A stretch of 45,649 bases of DNA from positions 386 to 46,034 of the forward strand of contig MFMW01000016.1 of the NCBI GenBank assembly GCA_001783595.1. Reading direction: 5' to 3'. Each line of letters opens with the position of its first letter. Position 1 is the stretch's first letter. Below the pieces are notes generated by a model, which ran no database searches, was not told the DNA's origin, and was given only the letters and a program-made list of their open reading frames with translations. The stretch is from Candidatus Kuenenbacteria bacterium RIFCSPHIGHO2_02_FULL_39_13 (lineage in GTDB: Bacteria; Patescibacteriota; Patescibacteriia; UBA2196; GWA2-42-15). Positions 37,037-44,522 of this stretch are shown here, piece by piece. Made by a program: the position numbers and the translations under genes.

Positions 37037-37159
37037 ATTAAATCATTCTAACAAGAATTAAATTTAGTGTCAAATCCCTGCACAAAGTTATTCGCAAACA
37101 AAAACTCTGCCATAAAGCAGGGTTTTGTTTGTAAATTTTGAATTAATTATTGAACGGTT

Positions 37160-37558
37160 TTATTTTCTCGCAACTTCTTTAATAAACTTGATAATTTCTT
37201 CAGCTGAATCAATTGCTTTTTTGGCTTCTTTTTTGCCGGCTGGCGGATATTCAGTTAGGGGATATCTGGCAATCAGATAAAATTGGCTTAAGTAACTTGT
37301 TTCGTCCGCAAAATCCAAAAAATCTTTTTCTATCTCGGCACATAATTTTAACAATTTAGTCAAATCGTGAATTTTGGGAAAACTATTTTTATGCAAAATT
37401 AAAAATCCTTTTAAATATTTTTCCGCTGCCTGCTGGGCGATAAAACAAATTTGCGCATAAAAAGCGCCAAATTCTTCAAAACTTGTTTGCGCGTATTTTA
37501 AATCATTGTCACCAATCGCAAACCACTTTTTAGCTTGCTGGCTATTTTTTTGCTTCAT
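37160..37558 (-). CDS. HEPN-domain protein (toxin of a HEPN/MNT pair)
   Basis: Start set at the internal ATG (MKQKNSQQAKKWF). QQAAEKYLKGFL and KIHDLTKLL are typical of small HEPN proteins. Overlaps the end of the upstream MNT gene. Confidence 0.75.
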   Translation of the reverse strand: MKQKNSQQAKKWFAIGDNDLKYAQTSFEEFGAFYAQICFIAQQAAEKYLKGFLILHKNSFPKIHDLTKLLKLCAEIEKDFLDFADETSYLSQFYLIARYPLTEYPPAGKKEAKKAIDSAEEIIKFIKEVARK

Positions 37559-37853
37559 ACAAAACCTTGCCGTTTTGAATGATGTCTTTAATAAAAAAAT
37601 CATCCACTAACAGACGACGTTTAATTTCTTGCGGTGTCATGACCAAAATATCAAAAGCAAAATCGGACCCCAATAAATATTTTCTCACTTCAGGAATTCT
37701 TTCATAAGGATTTTGTTTGGTATCTTTGATAATCAACAAATCCACATCGGAATCTTGATTTATTTTTCCATTAACATAACTGCCAAATAAAATTATCTTT
37801 TTAGGCTTATAATTCCTTAATTTCTTGGCAATGGTCAATATTTTTTTAGACAT
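37542..37853 (-). CDS. minimal nucleotidyltransferase (MNT) domain protein
   Basis: 103 aa. The LFGSYVNG..DSDVDLLII pattern (GS..DxD) of pol-beta-superfamily NTases. Confidence 0.8.
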   Translation of the reverse strand: MSKKILTIAKKLRNYKPKKIILFGSYVNGKINQDSDVDLLIIKDTKQNPYERIPEVRKYLLGSDFAFDILVMTPQEIKRRLLVDDFFIKDIIQNGKVLYEAKK

Positions 37854-37987
37854 AAAAATATTTTGTCTGCTCTAAAACCTCATCGCGAATATATGGACTT
37901 AAAGCGCCTCGCGTCACCAGATCAACTGGTAAATTTAATTTTAGAAATTAAATCCTTAAAATTAATTTGGGGAAATGTCTTGTTCAT
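37846..37987 (-). pseudogene. decayed nucleotidyltransferase gene remnant
   Basis: Minus strand reads MNKTFPQINFKDLISKIKFTS-stop. In another frame it reads VDLVTRGALSPYIRDEVLEQTKYFYV-stop, an MNT-like C-terminus. The catalytic core is missing. Confidence 0.45.
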
Positions 37988-38046
37988 ACTTTTATCTTAG
38001 CATAAATATTTGAAAAGTAAAACAACTGCCCGTCAGATACAACCCC

Positions 38047-38074
38047 TTGACTTTTTTTGACAATCTGCTACAAT
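38047..38074 (+). promoter_or_regulatory. putative sigma70 promoter for the DGR target gene
   Basis: TTGACT, 16-nt spacer, TACAAT, about 190 nt upstream of the target ATG. Confidence 0.5.
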
Positions 38075-38263
38075 AATGGTGTTATAAAATTCTTTGAAAA
38101 TATGGTTTAGAAATATGAGACGAGCGCCTTGGACGCTATAAAATATATAGTTTTCAAAGCGCTCGTCTCAAACAAGAGATAAGACCGTAGCCCCGCGGCA
38201 AGGGGTATCCGCTCTCTAAAGTCCTTAAAGGATGTGGAGAACAAATCAAAAAGGAGGTGTGCA

Positions 38264-39127
38264 ATGAGCACAAGCCAAAAAACAAGCGGTCTCTGGACAA
38301 TGACAAAGGGTGAGTTTGAGGAAAGCGTCTCCGCGTTGGAGAAAGCAGTTGTGAAGCAGGGAGGTAATCCCCGCGATCTCTTCGATCTCTTCCGCACTGA
38401 CGGTGAGTACGCCTGCCGCATCGCGCAAGCGATGATGCGCAAAGGTCTCGTTGGTTCCATCGAGTCGCGCCTAGCTCGGTTGGTTCTCGGTCGGAACATC
38501 TTCGACGATGCCGACTGGATGAGCTACTACGACGCCAAGTTCACCAAGAAGCAGTTCCGTGAAGCCGGGAAGTTTCCGTGGGGCGAAGACATCCTCAACA
38601 GTTCCTGCCCATTCAACTCGGGCAAGCTGGTGAAGGACACACACTTCGCATTTCTGGGTCTGACCGCCATCAACGGATCGCCGCTCACGGTGGCAAAGTG
38701 GCTCGAACTGCATCCGGCAACGGGCCAGCCGAAGTTATTCTGGAACACCGATCCGTGGCACACAGGCCAGCCCCACACCGATGTGGCGACCATGCAACTG
38801 CGCTGGTACTTGATGCTGAAGGGCGGCATCATTCCCGATTCCACGAGCAAGACGCCCGAGGAGCAGGTGGCAATGCTTCCGCCCGAGTACGAGGTGCCCA
38901 GCACCATCGCCGAAGTGACGAAGGACATTCTCGTCTTCCGTAAGACGGATGTTCGTCCGAATCCTTCTCACTGGGCGGCATGCACGGAACGCACAGTGAA
39001 GACCGACAAGGTCTCTGCTGGCTATGTCTCATGTGTCGGCCACTTCGACGAGGACGGCCTCAACGTCGGCTACTGGTACGGCGATCGCCACGACCGCGTT
39101 GGCCTCGGTGCGTCCCGGAAGTTCTGA
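38264..39127 (+). CDS. DGR variable (target) protein with C-terminal VR, probable C-type-lectin-fold ligand-binding domain
   Basis: ATG at 38264 preceded by AAGGAGG with a 6-nt spacer, preferred over the GTG at 38234. 287 aa. The last 36 codons overlap the VR. No N-terminal signal peptide or TM helix visible. About 60% GC in hand-counted lines. Confidence 0.88.
   Translation: MSTSQKTSGLWTMTKGEFEESVSALEKAVVKQGGNPRDLFDLFRTDGEYACRIAQAMMRKGLVGSIESRLARLVLGRNIFDDADWMSYYDAKFTKKQFREAGKFPWGEDILNSSCPFNSGKLVKDTHFAFLGLTAINGSPLTVAKWLELHPATGQPKLFWNTDPWHTGQPHTDVATMQLRWYLMLKGGIIPDSTSKTPEEQVAMLPPEYEVPSTIAEVTKDILVFRKTDVRPNPSHWAACTERTVKTDKVSAGYVSCVGHFDEDGLNVGYWYGDRHDRVGLGASRKF
39015..39120 (+). repeat. DGR variable region (VR)
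   Basis: 106 nt aligning without gaps to 39516..39621. The 11 mismatches are at 39023, 39041, 39053, 39068, 39069, 39071, 39077, 39083, 39089, 39095 and 39096, all opposite TR adenines. Confidence 0.92.
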
Positions 39128-39165
39128 ACCTTGAATACTTGAGGGTTTGGCCCTCTCGTAACCTT

Positions 39166-39206
39166 GAGCCTTCGGCGCGAAATTTTTTTCGTAGCGCCGG
39201 AGGCTC
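39166..39206 (+). terminator. GC-rich hairpin downstream of VR (target-gene terminator and/or DGR homing hairpin)
   Basis: GAGCCT-t-CGGCGC ... GCGCCG-g-AGGCTC followed by attttctttt. It starts 46 nt after the VR end. Confidence 0.6.
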
Positions 39207-39515
39207 ATTTTCTTTTATACTAACTTCTGATACAATAACTTCGTCTGCTAATGCAGGTGTGGTCACGGCTTCACCTCGCGGACGCCTCTTCTTTTAAGAG
39301 GTCACCGGAGTATCGTTGTCCAAGGATAACGATAGCGTGTGATAAAGAGTAGAGATGGAACTTCTTGCTTGTTTCTGGTGGAGGTTCTGCCTTTCAAAGG
39401 GCAGATGCTCCCGAATTAAATTCAAGGAAGAGAGTGTATGGGCTCGCAAGAGCAGTAATACTCAATTCTCGGTGATATGGATGGGAACAAGCAACATATG
39501 TTCGCACCGGCTCAT

Positions 39516-39621
39516 CTGCTGGCAATGTCTCATGTGTCGGCAACTTCGACGAGAACGGCCTCAACGTCAACAACTGGAACGGCAATCGCAACGACAACGT
39601 TGGCCTCGGTGCGTCCCGGAA
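39516..39621 (+). ncRNA. DGR template repeat (TR)
   Basis: In the VR reading frame it reads AGNVSCVGNFDENGLNVNNWNGNRNDNVGLGASRN. It contains 10 AAY codons, 9 of which are changed in VR. The region is non-coding, so the 117-aa ORF across it is rejected. Confidence 0.92.
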
Positions 39622-39644
39622 CTCCCATCTTTCTTCTATAAGAA

Positions 39645-39674
39645 TGCTCTCCTTTTGTGGAGGGCATTTCTTTT
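39645..39674 (+). terminator. intrinsic terminator immediately after TR
   Basis: 8-bp stem TGCTCTCC/GGAGGGCA (one G-U pair), loop ttttgt, then tttctttt. It abuts the avd stop codon on the opposite strand. Confidence 0.55.
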
Positions 39675-40023
39675 AGCGGTCTCGGGTAGACTTTATCCAG
39701 CCCCCTAACATCCTACCTATTTCATCTACATTTTGTTCCAAGCGGATGTATTTCTTACTGTCCAATACCTTGGTGTCTTTACAAAGCCGAAGAAAGACGC
39801 GCAGTAAGTTAAGTTTCGTGCTTGCTTTTTGGAGTATGGGTAATTTCTCTATTTTGGATAGCTGGCTTGCGCCGAGAATATATTCCAGAATTTCAAGGAT
39901 AAGATCTTCACACCGCTGCCAGATAGTATAACGGTCTTGTTTGGATACGGTATTGCGAAAACCATAGAATTCTTTGTAGAGTTCATAGGTCTTTTTAAAA
40001 ATTGGTATATCAAATTCGTCCAT
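39673..40023 (-). CDS. avd: DGR accessory variability determinant (Avd-like four-helix-bundle protein)
   Basis: 116 aa, basic and predicted all-helical. IPIFKKTYELYKEFY .. KQDRYTIWQRCEDL .. LLRVFLRLCKD .. IGRMLGGW resembles the Avd / 23S-rRNA-intervening-sequence protein family. Positioned between TR and RT. Confidence 0.8.
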   Translation of the reverse strand: MDEFDIPIFKKTYELYKEFYGFRNTVSKQDRYTIWQRCEDLILEILEYILGASQLSKIEKLPILQKASTKLNLLRVFLRLCKDTKVLDSKKYIRLEQNVDEIGRMLGGWIKSTRDR

Positions 40024-40034
40024 AGATAGATAGT

Positions 40035-41084
40035 ATGAAAATTTACAAAAATGTTTTTGAAAAAATAATCTCTTTAGAAAATCTCTTTTTGGCGTGGGAT
40101 AAATTCAAAAGCGACAAACAGAAAAGACAGGACGTGCGAAAATTTGAATGGCAACTTGAAGAAAACATTTTTAAGCTCCATAGGGATTTGAAATATAAAA
40201 GATACAAACACGGGGAATACGTCTCTTTTTACATTCAAGACCCAAAACAAAGACATATTCATAAGGCCACTGTCCGAGACCGCATACTTCACCATGCCGT
40301 CTTCGCCGCGCTTAGCCCAATCTTTGAGCCAACTTTTATCCCGAATTCTTTTTCTTGCCGTATCGGCAAAGGAACGCATAGGGGCATAGATATTCTGGAA
40401 AAAATACTAAAACAAGTAAGTGGCAATGCCTTTAAGCGGTGTTTTGTTCTTAAATGCGACATTAAAAAATTCTTTGAAACAATTGATCATAGAATTTTAT
40501 TAGACATCGTCCGTAAACGAGTAAAAGACGATGATGCCCTGCGGCTTTTGGAAGAAATTATTGAAAGTTTTTCTTCTAAATACTCCACGCTTTTTCAAAG
40601 AAAAGGCTTGCCCATAGGCAATTTAACCTCTCAACTGTTTGCTAATATCTACCTTAATGAATTTGACCAATTTGTCAAACACCACCTAAAAATAAAAAAC
40701 TACATTCGCTATACTGACGATTTTGTCATTATAGCTGGGGAAAGACTTTATTTAAAAAACATCATCGCCCCCATTCATTTCTTTTTTAAAAAGAAACTCG
40801 CTCTTGAGCTACACCCTAAAAAAATTACCATTCGTAAATTTCATCAAGGAATAGATTTCCTCGGCTACATTCTTCTGCCACATTATCGTTTACTGCGCGC
40901 CAAAACCAAGCAACGGATTTTCAGAAAATTAGAAAAAAGGGTAAGGGAATACAAGAATGAAACAATTAACAAACAAACTCTTGAGCAATCGCTCCAGTCC
41001 TATCTCGGCGTTCTTTCCCACGCCAATACATATAAACTTGGACAAAAAATGAAAAATCAATTCTGGTTTTGGCTAAGTGAATAG
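40035..41084 (+). CDS. DGR reverse transcriptase
   Basis: 349 aa. RT motifs CDIKKFFETIDH (A), GLPIGNLTSQLFANIYLNEFD (B, DGR-specific IGNxxSQ), YTDDFVII (C), GIDFLGY. No endonuclease or maturase domains. Confidence 0.93.
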   Translation: MKIYKNVFEKIISLENLFLAWDKFKSDKQKRQDVRKFEWQLEENIFKLHRDLKYKRYKHGEYVSFYIQDPKQRHIHKATVRDRILHHAVFAALSPIFEPTFIPNSFSCRIGKGTHRGIDILEKILKQVSGNAFKRCFVLKCDIKKFFETIDHRILLDIVRKRVKDDDALRLLEEIIESFSSKYSTLFQRKGLPIGNLTSQLFANIYLNEFDQFVKHHLKIKNYIRYTDDFVIIAGERLYLKNIIAPIHFFFKKKLALELHPKKITIRKFHQGIDFLGYILLPHYRLLRAKTKQRIFRKLEKRVREYKNETINKQTLEQSLQSYLGVLSHANTYKLGQKMKNQFWFWLSE

Positions 41085-41122
41085 CCTGAGCATTCCAAAA
41101 CCAAATATTAGGGCAAAAAAAT

Positions 41123-41139
41123 AGCGCCACTATGGCGCT
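41123..41139. terminator. bidirectional hairpin between RT and infB
   Basis: AGCGCCA-cta-TGGCGCT flanked by an A run and gtttt. Confidence 0.6.
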
Positions 41140-41172
41140 GTTTTAAACTAAATCCCTGATTGGCTAATCATT

Positions 41173-43176
41173 TTATTTTTCTTCTATTTTTATCACCTCT
41201 ATGTCGTCTCCTCCTTTTATTTCTACTATGCCTTTAATTTTTACGCCGCATTCCTGCCCAACAACAGCTTCTTTGACCACTTCTTTGCCAGCTTCTAAAC
41301 TAACCACTTGCGCCTGTTCAATTAACTCGTTGCCGCGATAAATTTTAGCCATCAAATCTGACATAATCTTGCCGCTCTCAACCCGGCCGCCGACAATCTG
41401 CCAATTTTTGCCAGTGCTAAATATTTTTAACACTTTTAATTTGCCCAATGTCTTTTCAACCATTTCTACTCCAGCCACCTGCTTAATTTCCTCTTCAACA
41501 AATAAAAGCAGGTCATAAATCACGTTAAAAAGCTGGATTTCAATATTTTTTTCAAGCGCCTGCCTTTTAGCTTCAGCGGTTATTTTTACGTTAAACCCCA
41601 ACAAATATGCCTTTGAAATCACTGCTTGTTCCACATCCTTTTCTATAATATTGCCCAGACCTTGTTTAATAATCACCACTTCAACTCTAGTCTGATTAAT
41701 TTTTTCCAAACTCTCAATAATCGCCTCAATTGAACCAAAAACATCGGCTTTTAAAATCAAGTTTACCTGTGGTCTCTCTTTTTTTTCTTCATCACCCTCA
41801 CTCTCTTCAGTTTTGATTGCCTGATGTTGTTCAACCAACCGGCTCAATTCCTTTCTATTTTTAAAAAGCTTCCTTATTTTTTTCCTGTCAGCCAATACTT
41901 GCAAAATTTCTCCCACCAACGGCACATTTTTTAATCCTAGAATTTTAACGGGCATTGAAGGCATTGCCTTATCCACCGCTTCTCCCTTCCAATTTTTCAT
42001 CGCCCGAATTTTGTTTGCTTGCCCGCCAATTTTTACTATCTCGCCTTTTTTCAATATGCCGTTATGGATTAAAACCGTGGCCACCGGCCCTTCGCCTTTA
42101 TCAATATGCGATTCAATGATCGTGCCGACTGCCAGACTTTTTTCATCAGCCACAATCTTATCGCTCTCCATATCAGCCACTAAAAATAATGTTTCCAGCA
42201 GCTCGTCAATATGCAAATTTTGTTTGGCTGAAATTGCCACGCAAATGGTTTTGCCGCCCCAATCTTCAGCAGCCAAACCGATATTCGCCAGATCTGATTT
42301 TACTTTATCAATATTAACGCCGGGCTTATCAATCTTGTTAATCGCCACAATAAAAGGCAGGCCAGCCTGTCTGATGTGCGCCACTGCTTCTATTGTCTGG
42401 GGCTGTACGCCATCATCAGCCGCCACGATTAATATGGCAATATCAGCTACTTGCGCTCCGCGTGATCTCATGGCGGAAAATGCCTCGTGCCCTGGCGTGT
42501 CAATAAAGGTCAGCAGCCGGCCGCCTTTTTCCACTTGGTAAGCTCCAATATGCTGGGTAATACCGCCTGCTTCTCCTTCCATAATATTTGTCTGTCTGAT
42601 GGCATCTAAAAGTTTTGTTTTGCCGTGGTCAACGTGCCCCATAACCACCACCACCGGCGGCCGCGGCACAGCGTTTTTCTTGTCAACCTGAAGCAGTTTG
42701 CCATAATCAATATTATGCGCTGCCCCTGCCCTTTCTTCAGATTTTTCTACTTTAAATCCCAAATCTTCGGCAATAATGCTGGCTGTCTCAAAATCAATGT
42801 CCTGATTGAGCGAGGCCATAACGCCATTTTTTATCAGCTCCAAGATTAAATTCGTCACTGGCATGCCCATTCTTTTTGAGAGTTCATTGACCACAATCCG
42901 CTCTGAAATTTGAATCACTTTGTTTCCCTCTTTTTTACTTTCAGCCTGCTTTGCCTCCCCAACAGATTTTTTCGGCTTTTCTACCACATCATCTGTCAGA
43001 TATTTCTGTCTAATCTTCGGGTCAGATAATTTCTCCAGTATTGCCTGGGCCATTGTGGGGTCAACTTTGATCGCCCGCAGGCCAATATCAAAACCAAGCT
43101 TAGGCATTATATCCCTAAGCTTTGCCGGCGTGATGCGCAGTTTTCTAGCAAGCTCCGTGACATTCATATTATTCAA
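41173..43176 (-). CDS. infB: translation initiation factor IF-2
   Basis: 667 aa. G domain VVVMGHVDHGKTKLLD, DTPGHEAF, NKID. C-terminal IF-2 domains. Confidence 0.97.
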   Translation of the reverse strand: MNNMNVTELARKLRITPAKLRDIMPKLGFDIGLRAIKVDPTMAQAILEKLSDPKIRQKYLTDDVVEKPKKSVGEAKQAESKKEGNKVIQISERIVVNELSKRMGMPVTNLILELIKNGVMASLNQDIDFETASIIAEDLGFKVEKSEERAGAAHNIDYGKLLQVDKKNAVPRPPVVVVMGHVDHGKTKLLDAIRQTNIMEGEAGGITQHIGAYQVEKGGRLLTFIDTPGHEAFSAMRSRGAQVADIAILIVAADDGVQPQTIEAVAHIRQAGLPFIVAINKIDKPGVNIDKVKSDLANIGLAAEDWGGKTICVAISAKQNLHIDELLETLFLVADMESDKIVADEKSLAVGTIIESHIDKGEGPVATVLIHNGILKKGEIVKIGGQANKIRAMKNWKGEAVDKAMPSMPVKILGLKNVPLVGEILQVLADRKKIRKLFKNRKELSRLVEQHQAIKTEESEGDEEKKERPQVNLILKADVFGSIEAIIESLEKINQTRVEVVIIKQGLGNIIEKDVEQAVISKAYLLGFNVKITAEAKRQALEKNIEIQLFNVIYDLLLFVEEEIKQVAGVEMVEKTLGKLKVLKIFSTGKNWQIVGGRVESGKIMSDLMAKIYRGNELIEQAQVVSLEAGKEVVKEAVVGQECGVKIKGIVEIKGGDDIEVIKIEEK

Positions 43177-44446: not shown

Positions 44447-44522
44447 GCGCCTATAGCTCAGGGGTTAGAGCATCCGCCTTATAAGCGAAAGGTCGCTGGT
44501 TCGATCCCAGCTAGGCGCACCA
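44447..44522 (+). tRNA. tRNA-Ile (anticodon TAT), CCA encoded
   Basis: Acceptor GCGCCTA/TAGGCGC, D arm GCTC/GAGC, anticodon stem TCCGC/GCGAA (one C-A mismatch) with loop CTTATAA, T arm GCTGG/CCAGC, ACCA. Confidence 0.8.

Follow-up and report, generated by a model that had tools for sequence, protein, structure and literature searches.

Introduction

Diversity-generating retroelements (DGRs) of the candidate phyla radiation (CPR) were reportedly first surveyed by Paul et al. in 2017. These elements are enriched in the CPR (PMC8144416, PMC5758913), where 90% of them have the B3 architecture, a TR-(avd)-RT core made up of the template repeat (TR), an inverted avd gene and the reverse transcriptase (RT) gene (Wu et al. 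2018, PMC5758913). DGR clade 2 is restricted to Patescibacteria and its targets typically have no recognisable domains; a divergent fold resembling C-type lectins (CLec) or the formylglycine-generating enzyme (FGE) has been anticipated for CPR targets (Roux et al. 2021, PMC8144416). In the Bordetella DGR, a strand of the spacer 3' of TR pairs with the 3' part of TR and provides the priming adenosine, and elements of the Bordetella type were reported for CPR DGRs by a survey that covered 40 nt on the upstream and 100 nt on the downstream side of TR (bioRxiv 10.1101/2023.10.23.563531). Here we describe segment 38047-41084 of a 45,649-nt stretch of contig MFMW01000016.1 (the window), from a Candidatus Kuenenbacteria-like genome. 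The segment has the layout target gene with variable repeat (VR), TR, inverted avd, RT, and we conclude, with a probability of about 0.93, that it is an intact and recently active DGR of the CPR B3 kind.

Because its core order matches the published B3 architecture, the element belongs to a known and well-populated kind. It resembles the CPR B3/clade 2 elements in gene order, inverted avd, CPR host, chromosomal location, a TR rich in AAY codons, and a target that has no recognisable transmembrane or conserved domain; nothing here contradicts membership. The element of Bordetella phage BPP-1 (mtd-avd-TR-brt) is similar in having an RT that aligns end to end with bRT, an Avd protein, adenine-specific substitutions, a target with VR at its 3' end, an invariant GC-rich end resembling the initiation of mutagenic homing (IMH) site that is followed by a small hairpin, and an RNA duplex, predicted here, between upstream and downstream strands that brackets TR. 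However, avd is inverted here and separates TR from RT, the large structured RNA precedes TR instead of lying in a 140-nt 3' spacer, and the strand predicted to pair with the TR 3' edge comes from upstream. The target also looks cytoplasmic and its host is a cell, whereas the BPP-1 target is a tail fibre and its host a phage.

VR and TR differ only at template adenines

A repeat search of positions 37500-41500 returned a single long direct repeat, 39014-39120 and 39515-39621, which is 107 nt long and 90% identical. The offset of exactly 501 nt agrees with the initial annotation of this DNA, which had given the length as 106 nt. In the pairwise alignment the similarity begins abruptly at TCTGCTGGC and stops at CCCGGAA, and the two copies diverge directly past GGAA. 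All 11 mismatches are A in the downstream copy and occupy codon position 1 or 2 of AAY codons in the frame of 38264-39127; there are no differences at other bases. If mismatches were random with respect to base, the chance of this outcome would be approximately (26/107)^11, about 2e-7. We therefore assign the downstream copy as TR. The upstream copy is VR and occupies the 3' end of the 287-aa open reading frame (ORF), in line with the proposal that the coding sequence ends in VR. The same bias recurs in 20 related cassettes.

Translated in the VR frame, TR reads SAGNVSCVGNFDENGLNVNNWNGNRNDNVGLGASRN. Its ten AAY and three GAN codons are open to recoding, and a stop codon is reachable from none of them. 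With the last AAC left out, as it is invariant in relatives, the VR repertoire is 15^10 x 4^3, about 3.7e13 protein variants. At the GC-rich 3' end that VR shares with TR (Table 1) the two terminal A are never mutated in relatives and the encoded ASRK is invariant in homologues; by analogy, we infer that this end acts like the Bordetella IMH (PMC5758913). A small hairpin at 39141-39155 downstream of VR has no counterpart after TR.

The reverse transcriptase and Avd are of the DGR type

The RT carries the LPIGNLTSQ motif that had been read from the DNA, together with YTDD, and matches Pfam RVT_1. Among the sequences of solved structures its best match was the Bordetella phage DGR RT of 328 aa (8ub7 and related entries), with an E-value of 3.7e-42 over residues 3-343, versus 4.5e-24 for the best group II RT. 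The sequence LPIGNLTSQLFANIY aligns with IPIGSLTSQLFANVY of bRT, LPIGNLTSQ with IPIGSLTSQ, and YTDD with YMDD. More than 8000 relatives of the RT were found, and the named close ones are from CPR/Patescibacteria, with one labelled just 'bacterium'.

Generic RT models also score, and public annotations call relatives of this RT 'retron-type' or 'group II intron' RTs, which would fit an enzyme of a group II intron, a retron or a DRT/UG defence system beside an unrelated 107-nt duplication. The top NCBIfam match is the group II RT/maturase model TIGR04416 at 158.6 (cut-off 300); retron St85 reaches 52.9 (cut-off 235), Drt2 and Drt3a fall far under their cut-offs, and PADLOC UG17 (120 bits) and UG4 (110 bits) are both weaker than the generic RT model of PADLOC. 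All of these scores are far below the family cut-offs, however, whereas the Bordetella DGR RT is the nearest solved relative by 18 orders of magnitude. Rfam, searched at the gathering threshold and at E up to 10, gave no group II or retron RNA, Avd adjoins the RT, and adenine-only mismatches are not expected of a plain duplication. This alternative is thus extremely improbable.

The small basic protein that the initial annotation had called Avd-like is real, and is encoded on the minus strand, which had not been stated. It scores 62.8 bits against Pfam bAvd (cut-off 40) and 79.6 against the NCBIfam DGR Avd equivalog DivGenRetAVD, 0.4 bits short of the cut-off of 80; phmmer comparison with solved Avd chains and PDB sequences gave no match. 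We regard both a DGR-type RT and a DGR-type Avd as established. The divergent start codons of avd and RT are separated by 11 nt (40024-40034; 0-23 nt in relatives). As neither gene has a visible Shine-Dalgarno sequence and this gap contains no convincing separate RT promoter, the promoters lie inside each other's gene or the mRNAs are leaderless.

All four parts that had been proposed are thus present at their predicted positions, and the closest relatives are metagenome-assembled genomes (MAGs) of Candidatus Kuenenbacteria, in agreement with the CPR-like host claimed. The outcomes named beforehand as grounds for abandoning the DGR interpretation (an RT nearer to group II introns or retrons, differences off TR adenines, an invariant VR beside a broken RT) all fell on the DGR side.

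Sister contigs reveal recent diversification of VR

Two syntenic sister contigs, L001 and L005 (PFHP01000022.1, Candidatus Kuenenbacteria), allowed a comparison at the DNA level. Relative to both, the window has 0 differences in the 1050 nt of RT, 0 in the 107 nt of TR, 1 in avd and 0-1 in the VR-TR spacer. VR itself has 13 and 15 differences, respectively, of which 12/13 and 15/15 are at TR-A sites. The heterogeneity at these sites that the initial annotation had proposed to look for in population reads is therefore seen between near-identical contigs, next to an intact RT. Because sisters with identical RT and TR differ at the TR-A sites of VR, the element has been active recently, and the diversification postdates the very recent common ancestor of the surrounding island. 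One VR difference from L001, at 39076 (G/T), lies off the TR adenines and counts against this interpretation.

Many relatives are decayed or orphaned, including an RT remnant in L010, an in-frame avd stop with a split RT in L034 and approximately 20 orphan targets, and one sequence cannot reveal activity in this very genome. The cassette might accordingly be a fossil whose VR was diversified formerly and which no longer functions here. We consider this improbable, as every ORF is intact and the catalytic YTDD is kept, and as TR, the RNA domain described below, avd and RT are 99.9-100% identical to both sisters while the VRs differ at 13-15 sites, nearly all of them TR-A.

Target homologues of 93-96% identity vary mostly at AAY-coded residues, apart from two short patches outside VR. 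Between the window and its sisters the non-VR part of the target (38264-39013) has 20-22 differences and a 3-nt indel that are gathered in three or four patches (among them 38440-38473, 38737-38764 and 38822-38837) and are not adenine-specific. The window allele (PKLFWNTDPWHTGQP, LKGGIIP) departs there from the family consensus (PKFYFN.DPWH.GQP, LK-DIVP). These patches suggest that alleles are mosaic or underwent gene conversion, or that diversifying selection acts outside VR.

The cassette sits in a 4.1-kb island, 37047-41147, that is about 99.8-100% identical to L001 and L005 except in the target gene and its leader. The flanks, with a DHH phosphoesterase gene on the upstream and IF-2 on the downstream side, diverge by about 5-15% per 250-nt bin, and the island edges fall in the intergenic spaces beside the start of the DHH gene and the stop of IF-2. 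Near-identity inside and divergence outside indicate that the island was recently exchanged horizontally or swept. The neighbourhood had been described as otherwise housekeeping; this holds for the flanks but not for the HEPN/nucleotidyltransferase gene pair directly upstream of the DGR, which belongs to the same exchanged island. In a Yanofskybacteria contig (L002) the cassette lies between the RNase J and signal-peptide-peptidase genes, with DNA homology spanning 38116-41083. Since other phyla carry the cassette in other neighbourhoods, it is mobile over longer times.

Target and RT modules have exchanged partners

Homologues of the target numbered 238 at E-values up to 0.001, and the named ones are from the CPR (Kuenen-, Yanofsky-, Pace-, Falkow-, Lipton- and Kaiserbacteria). 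Scanning a genome collection with the target alignment yielded 48 loci, nearly all in Patescibacteria MAGs, with a few labelled otherwise, for example Gammaproteobacteria. Wherever avd and RT are present (about 21 loci, plus 3 found via RT) the order is target(+), TR(+), avd(-), RT(+), and the distance from the TR end to the avd stop is 18-70 nt, mostly 44-58.

The three loci found via RT, L053-L055, have RTs 79-85% identical to that of the window, the same architecture and adenine-biased VR/TR pairs, yet their targets are 43% identical to the window target, 28% identical and, in L054, unrelated. In L002, conversely, the target is 81% identical and the RT merely 64%. As the histories of RT and target disagree, the RT/Avd/RNA module and the target modules must recombine. 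L053-L055 also have the same RNA domain 5' of TR, with compensatory changes, and the same element after VR. A nucleotide hidden Markov model of this RNA domain (nhmmer) detected it in every avd/RT locus except L017, and in fragments in decaying cassettes; it found nothing in about 20 orphan target loci. The domain is present beside an unrelated target and absent at orphan targets, and so follows the RT/Avd module and not the target.

Many CPR genomes hold orphan target homologues with no RT, avd or TR RNA within 6 kb; orphan or decaying loci include L010, L011, L015, L016, L029, L034, L040 and L041, among others. Besides the damaged RT and avd genes of L010 and L034, decay is visible as partial RNA domains in L027, L040 and L041. 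It seems that the target family alternates between active cassettes and targets left as orphans. A separate case is L017:6001-7716, a Parcubacteria contig that ends within RT and has an avd, 86% identical to that of the window, about 49 nt past the target stop. It has neither TR nor RNA domain between target and avd, and its TR must lie elsewhere or have been lost.

A conserved RNA domain precedes TR

Eighteen cassettes were aligned from the end of VR to the avd stop. The 390-nt VR-TR stretch, nominally intergenic, is conserved. Immediately after VR there are three or four copies of (C)TTGA spaced about 10 nt apart, roughly one helical turn, together with a mini-hairpin that has a TTG loop. 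This element is kept even where the target is unrelated (L054:3058-3110), and by analogy with the hairpin that flanks the Bordetella IMH it is a candidate signal for the recipient site. The terminator-like hairpin of the target gene follows (39115-39215, fold z = -5.2). An Rfam match to sroE at 39134-39214 (23 bits versus a cut-off of 51) was traced to this terminator hairpin only and rejected.

The conserved RNA begins 8 nt downstream of an extended -10 box, the putative TR-RNA promoter. From 39244, RNAalifold predicts nine helices. The supported ones in the 5' domain are 39244-39282, 39301-39343, 39380-39411 and 39425-39470, the last two being enclosed by a 12-bp long-range helix of 39365-39376 with 39483-39494. 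A further hairpin, 39285-39301, was spotted by eye in the alignments and also appears in the single-sequence fold, which has z = -3.5 for the domain. Among 15 sequences, the 82 predicted pairs are 96.0% paired, versus 43-46% after the 3' partners are shifted by 1-3 columns, and 51 of the 82 show compensatory change, versus 11-20 after such a shift; none of 500 shuffles reaches any observed measure. Helices predicted inside TR (helices 10-12) have no compensatory change and were dropped. Rfam 15, at both thresholds used above, contains no relevant family, including the RT-1 to RT-19 motifs (Weinberg et al.). The RNA domain, the post-VR element and the GC-rich target (see below) are not described in the part of the literature that we searched.

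The hairpin after TR (helix 13) is likewise supported, with 95.8% pairing and compensatory change in 8 of 12 pairs. It may terminate transcription in both directions, bind Avd as a stem-loop, or do both.

A predicted duplex brackets TR

The purine-rich strand of the 5' domain is predicted to pair with the TR 3' end and the pyrimidine-rich tail that follows it: AGAGATGG (39351-39358) with CCATCTTT (39626-39633), and TTCT (39362-39365) with the last four TR bases, GGAA (39618-39621). The mean energy of this pairing is -14.2 kcal/mol, compared with -9.2 for shuffled tails, and none of the other conserved single-stranded parts of the 5' domain pairs with the TR tail more strongly than expected. 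Cognate combinations of strand and tail reach -13.9 versus -11.8 kcal/mol for non-cognate ones (permutation p = 0.0006), and there are lineage-specific matches such as ATGGAA/TTCCAT and ATTGAA/TTCAGT.

We also measured codon entropy at conserved avd residues, a crude test. Relative to its maximum, entropy reaches 0.97 in the TR-proximal third of avd and 0.83 in the third that adjoins the RT start (range elsewhere 0.93-0.97). Since the TR-proximal synonymous sites are unconstrained, no RNA element antisense to the 3' part of avd is seen. An RT promoter or ribosome site embedded at the avd 5' end would produce the mild constraint observed there.

By homology with Bordetella, RT and Avd would bind the TR-containing RNA and copy it into cDNA with random nucleotides opposite template adenines, and this cDNA would replace VR, so that the C-terminal domain of the target is recoded at ten AAY and three GAN codons. 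The comparative data further suggest that the template RNA is probably its own transcript of approximately 430 nt (about 39244-39672), which would start at the extended -10 box past the target terminator, end at the hairpin abutting the convergent avd, and carry the structured domain of approximately 250 nt 5' of TR. Pairing of the purine strand (39346-39365) with the last four TR bases and the pyrimidine tail would set a conserved adenosine (about 39360) beside the 3' edge of VR/TR homology, as a cis-priming site, and the (C)TTGA element and mini-hairpin after VR may mark the recipient site.

Under a Bordetella-like arrangement, the functional spacer, with its Avd-binding stem-loop, priming adenosine and elements that bind RT, would instead lie 3' of TR, running from the 39640-39671 hairpin into RNA antisense to avd and co-transcribed with RT, and the 5' domain would serve RNA stability, regulation or promoter context. 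Besides the Bordetella precedent, a survey reported that 207 of 278 DGRs with Avd have an Avd-binding stem-loop directly after TR, and it mentions CPR members (bioRxiv 10.1101/2023.10.23.563531). The covarying 12-bp hairpin lies about 20 nt past TR, and the 11-nt avd-RT gap offers no convincing separate RT promoter or Shine-Dalgarno sequence. However, this hairpin is shaped like a bidirectional terminator (A-tract, GC stem, T-tract) and stops 1 nt before the avd stop, and the avd synonymous sites nearest TR are as free as codon usage allows. The 5' domain, for its part, covaries strongly, contains a purine strand that co-evolves with the TR 3' edge, and tracks the RT/Avd module across target families. 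We judge a functional 3' spacer rather unlikely, and lean towards a stand-alone template RNA with a 5' domain as likelier than Bordetella-like read-through, at not quite even odds. More tentatively, the B3 template RNA as such may be a stand-alone, permuted version of the Bordetella RNA, approximately 430 nt long, with a 5' priming/binding domain and a shared bidirectional terminator.

Several points weigh against a stand-alone RNA. The -35 region at the putative RNA promoter is poor. The duplex signal is partly a matter of purine/pyrimidine composition, as the energy of the shuffled tails illustrates. In the codon-entropy test, the pseudogene row L034 is misaligned past its internal stop. The post-TR hairpin could be the Avd-binding stem-loop of a longer RNA that continues through antisense avd into RT. 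Finally, the RNA promoter, the RNA ends, the priming site and the recipient element are all inferred from sequence.

The target is a GC-rich gene with a structured leader

The ATG at 38264 has a strong AAGGAGG 7 nt upstream and is the start in most homologues; the GTG at 38234 listed by the ORF tool is probably not used. The left edge of the segment, 38047, falls on a promoter-like site that is conserved in relatives, with TTGAC and TAtAAT boxes kept at the same place in related cassettes. Between promoter and gene is a leader of approximately 180 nt that is also kept by orphan targets that have no RT. It forms a palindromic hairpin with 25-nt arms at 38116-38170, where DNA homology to the L002 cassette starts, and two smaller hairpins at about 38189-38206 and 38212-38240. 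In the long hairpin the outer arms, TGAGACGAGC...GCTCGTCTCA, keep their sequence and do not covary. Of 35 predicted pairs in the leader, 12 show compensatory change, and the stem survives loop insertions in L026 and L041. The leader may serve as an operator, as an attenuator or to stabilise the RNA.

Searches of Pfam, NCBIfam, PADLOC and PDB sequences returned no match to the target family. When 46 homologues were scanned with Pfam, the outcome was just DUF5949 below threshold, which we took as noise, and the target profile found only low-complexity helical designs among PDB sequences. No segment resembles a signal peptide or membrane helix (the highest Kyte-Doolittle mean over 19 residues is 1.0), and the protein is apparently soluble and cytoplasmic. 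The first full-length structural model was uneven, with one of five models at a predicted local distance difference test (pLDDT) score of 84. Modelling of residues 76-287 from 101 sequences gave a pLDDT of 95.1 and a predicted template modelling (TM) score of 0.93, with all five models above 94. In this model VR makes up the C-terminal ~36 residues, on beta-strands of an alpha/beta domain.

Foldseek comparison of the C-terminal model with the PDB gave no significant match, with a best E-value of 0.43 and a TM-score of at most 0.41, and the full-length model, with a similar list of weak hits, retrieved nothing significant from the PDB or BFVD. The weak hits are mostly C-type lectins (CEL-I, mannose-receptor CRD4, BDCA2, factor IX/X-binding protein), and the list is also rich in FGE-like domains (EgtB, CalU17). 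A very divergent CLec/FGE-like fold is plausible for the modelled domain. Like the CLec/FGE-like DGR variable proteins Mtd, TvpA and the archaeal AvpA, the target has VR in its C-terminal ~36 residues, and its weak matches are mostly to folds of this class; no match is significant, however, despite a model of pLDDT 95, and none of the three is among its hits. The claim of a ligand-binding target was not borne out, as there is no family match and the hint of a lectin-like fold is non-significant.

The target gene has a GC content of 58%, 74% at third codon positions (GC3), and 22% A. By comparison, avd and RT have 36-40% GC and a GC3 of 37-44%, and the window overall has 40% GC. A contrast of approximately 13-27 points between target and cassette recurs in about 20 diverged cassettes, including L054 with its unrelated target. 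Targets range from 52 to 64% GC, except in L042 (42% versus 27-29%), and RT and avd mostly from 32 to 41%. Transfer from a high-GC donor was considered and rejected, because this recurrence shows the contrast to be intrinsic and not the trace of a recent transfer. One idea is GC-biased gene conversion at a recombination-prone recipient gene.

Sequence features of the segment and neighbouring genes

The features are collected in Table 1. Elsewhere in the window, ARAGORN found a tRNA-Ile with anticodon UAU at 44447-44522, directly followed by tRNA-Val(GAC). Bacterial AUA codons are usually read by a lysidine-modified CAU tRNA, and a UAU tRNA-Ile is uncommon.

Table 1. Features of the DGR locus and adjacent genes, in window coordinates.
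Feature	Position	Strand	Remarks
HEPN gene	37160-37603		in the 4.1-kb island, upstream of the DGR
Nucleotidyltransferase gene	37542-37853		in the 4.1-kb island, upstream of the DGR
Promoter-like site of target gene	38047-38074	+	TTGACT-16-TACAAT, TG before -10
Conserved structured 5' leader of target gene	38085-38263	+	hairpins; Shine-Dalgarno AAGGAGG at 38251-38257
Target gene	38264-39127	+	287 aa; N-terminal helical part and VR-bearing C-terminal domain
VR	39014-39120	+	residues 251-286 of the 287-aa target
IMH-like invariant GC-rich 3' end of VR	39098-39120	+	GTTGGCCTCGGTGCGTCCCGGAA, 23 nt; same in TR at 39599-39621
Post-VR element	39121-39164	+	(C)TTGA repeats; 5-bp mini-hairpin GAGGG-TTTGG-CCCTC (39141-39155)
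Terminator-like hairpin of target gene	39165-39216	+	GAGCCTTCGGCGCG...GCGCCGGAGGCTC, then T-run
Extended -10 box, putative TR-RNA promoter	39228-39236	+	TGaTACAAT; 18 cassettes share a TAnAAT-like box in this column
Conserved structured RNA domain 5' of TR	39244-39494	+	~250 nt
Purine-rich strand	39346-39365	+	AGAG-T-AGAGATGG-AAC-TTCT; predicted pairing with TR 3' end and tail
TR	39515-39621	+	26 A; ten AAY and three GAN codons in the VR frame
Pyrimidine-rich tail after TR	39622-39639	+	IMH*-side, TR-specific; predicted pairing with 39346-39358
Hairpin after TR	39640-39671	+	12 bp; A-tract/GC stem/T-tract; ends 1 nt before avd stop
avd	39673-40023	-	116 aa, pI 9.2; convergent with TR, divergent from RT
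DGR reverse transcriptase	40035-41084	+	349 aa; LPIGNLTSQ, YTDD

Significance

As a DGR this element is ordinary, since enrichment in the CPR is documented and its layout is the standard one there. Its value is as a clean, recent example, in which RT and TR are identical across strains and the VRs differ. It also draws attention to a target family that is widespread in the CPR, apparently cytoplasmic and uncharacterised. The GC3-rich target within an AT-rich cassette, together with the mosaic divergence of the target, hints at unusually frequent recombination of the recipient gene.

The main lead is the covarying RNA domain 5' of TR and its predicted pairing with the TR 3' edge. If this domain is the RT/Avd-binding and priming module, the priming topology of CPR DGRs would differ from that of the one system with biochemical data. 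In vitro reconstitution of a DGR from uncultivated organisms could then start from a defined minimal RNA (about 39244-39672), the 349-aa RT and the 116-aa Avd.

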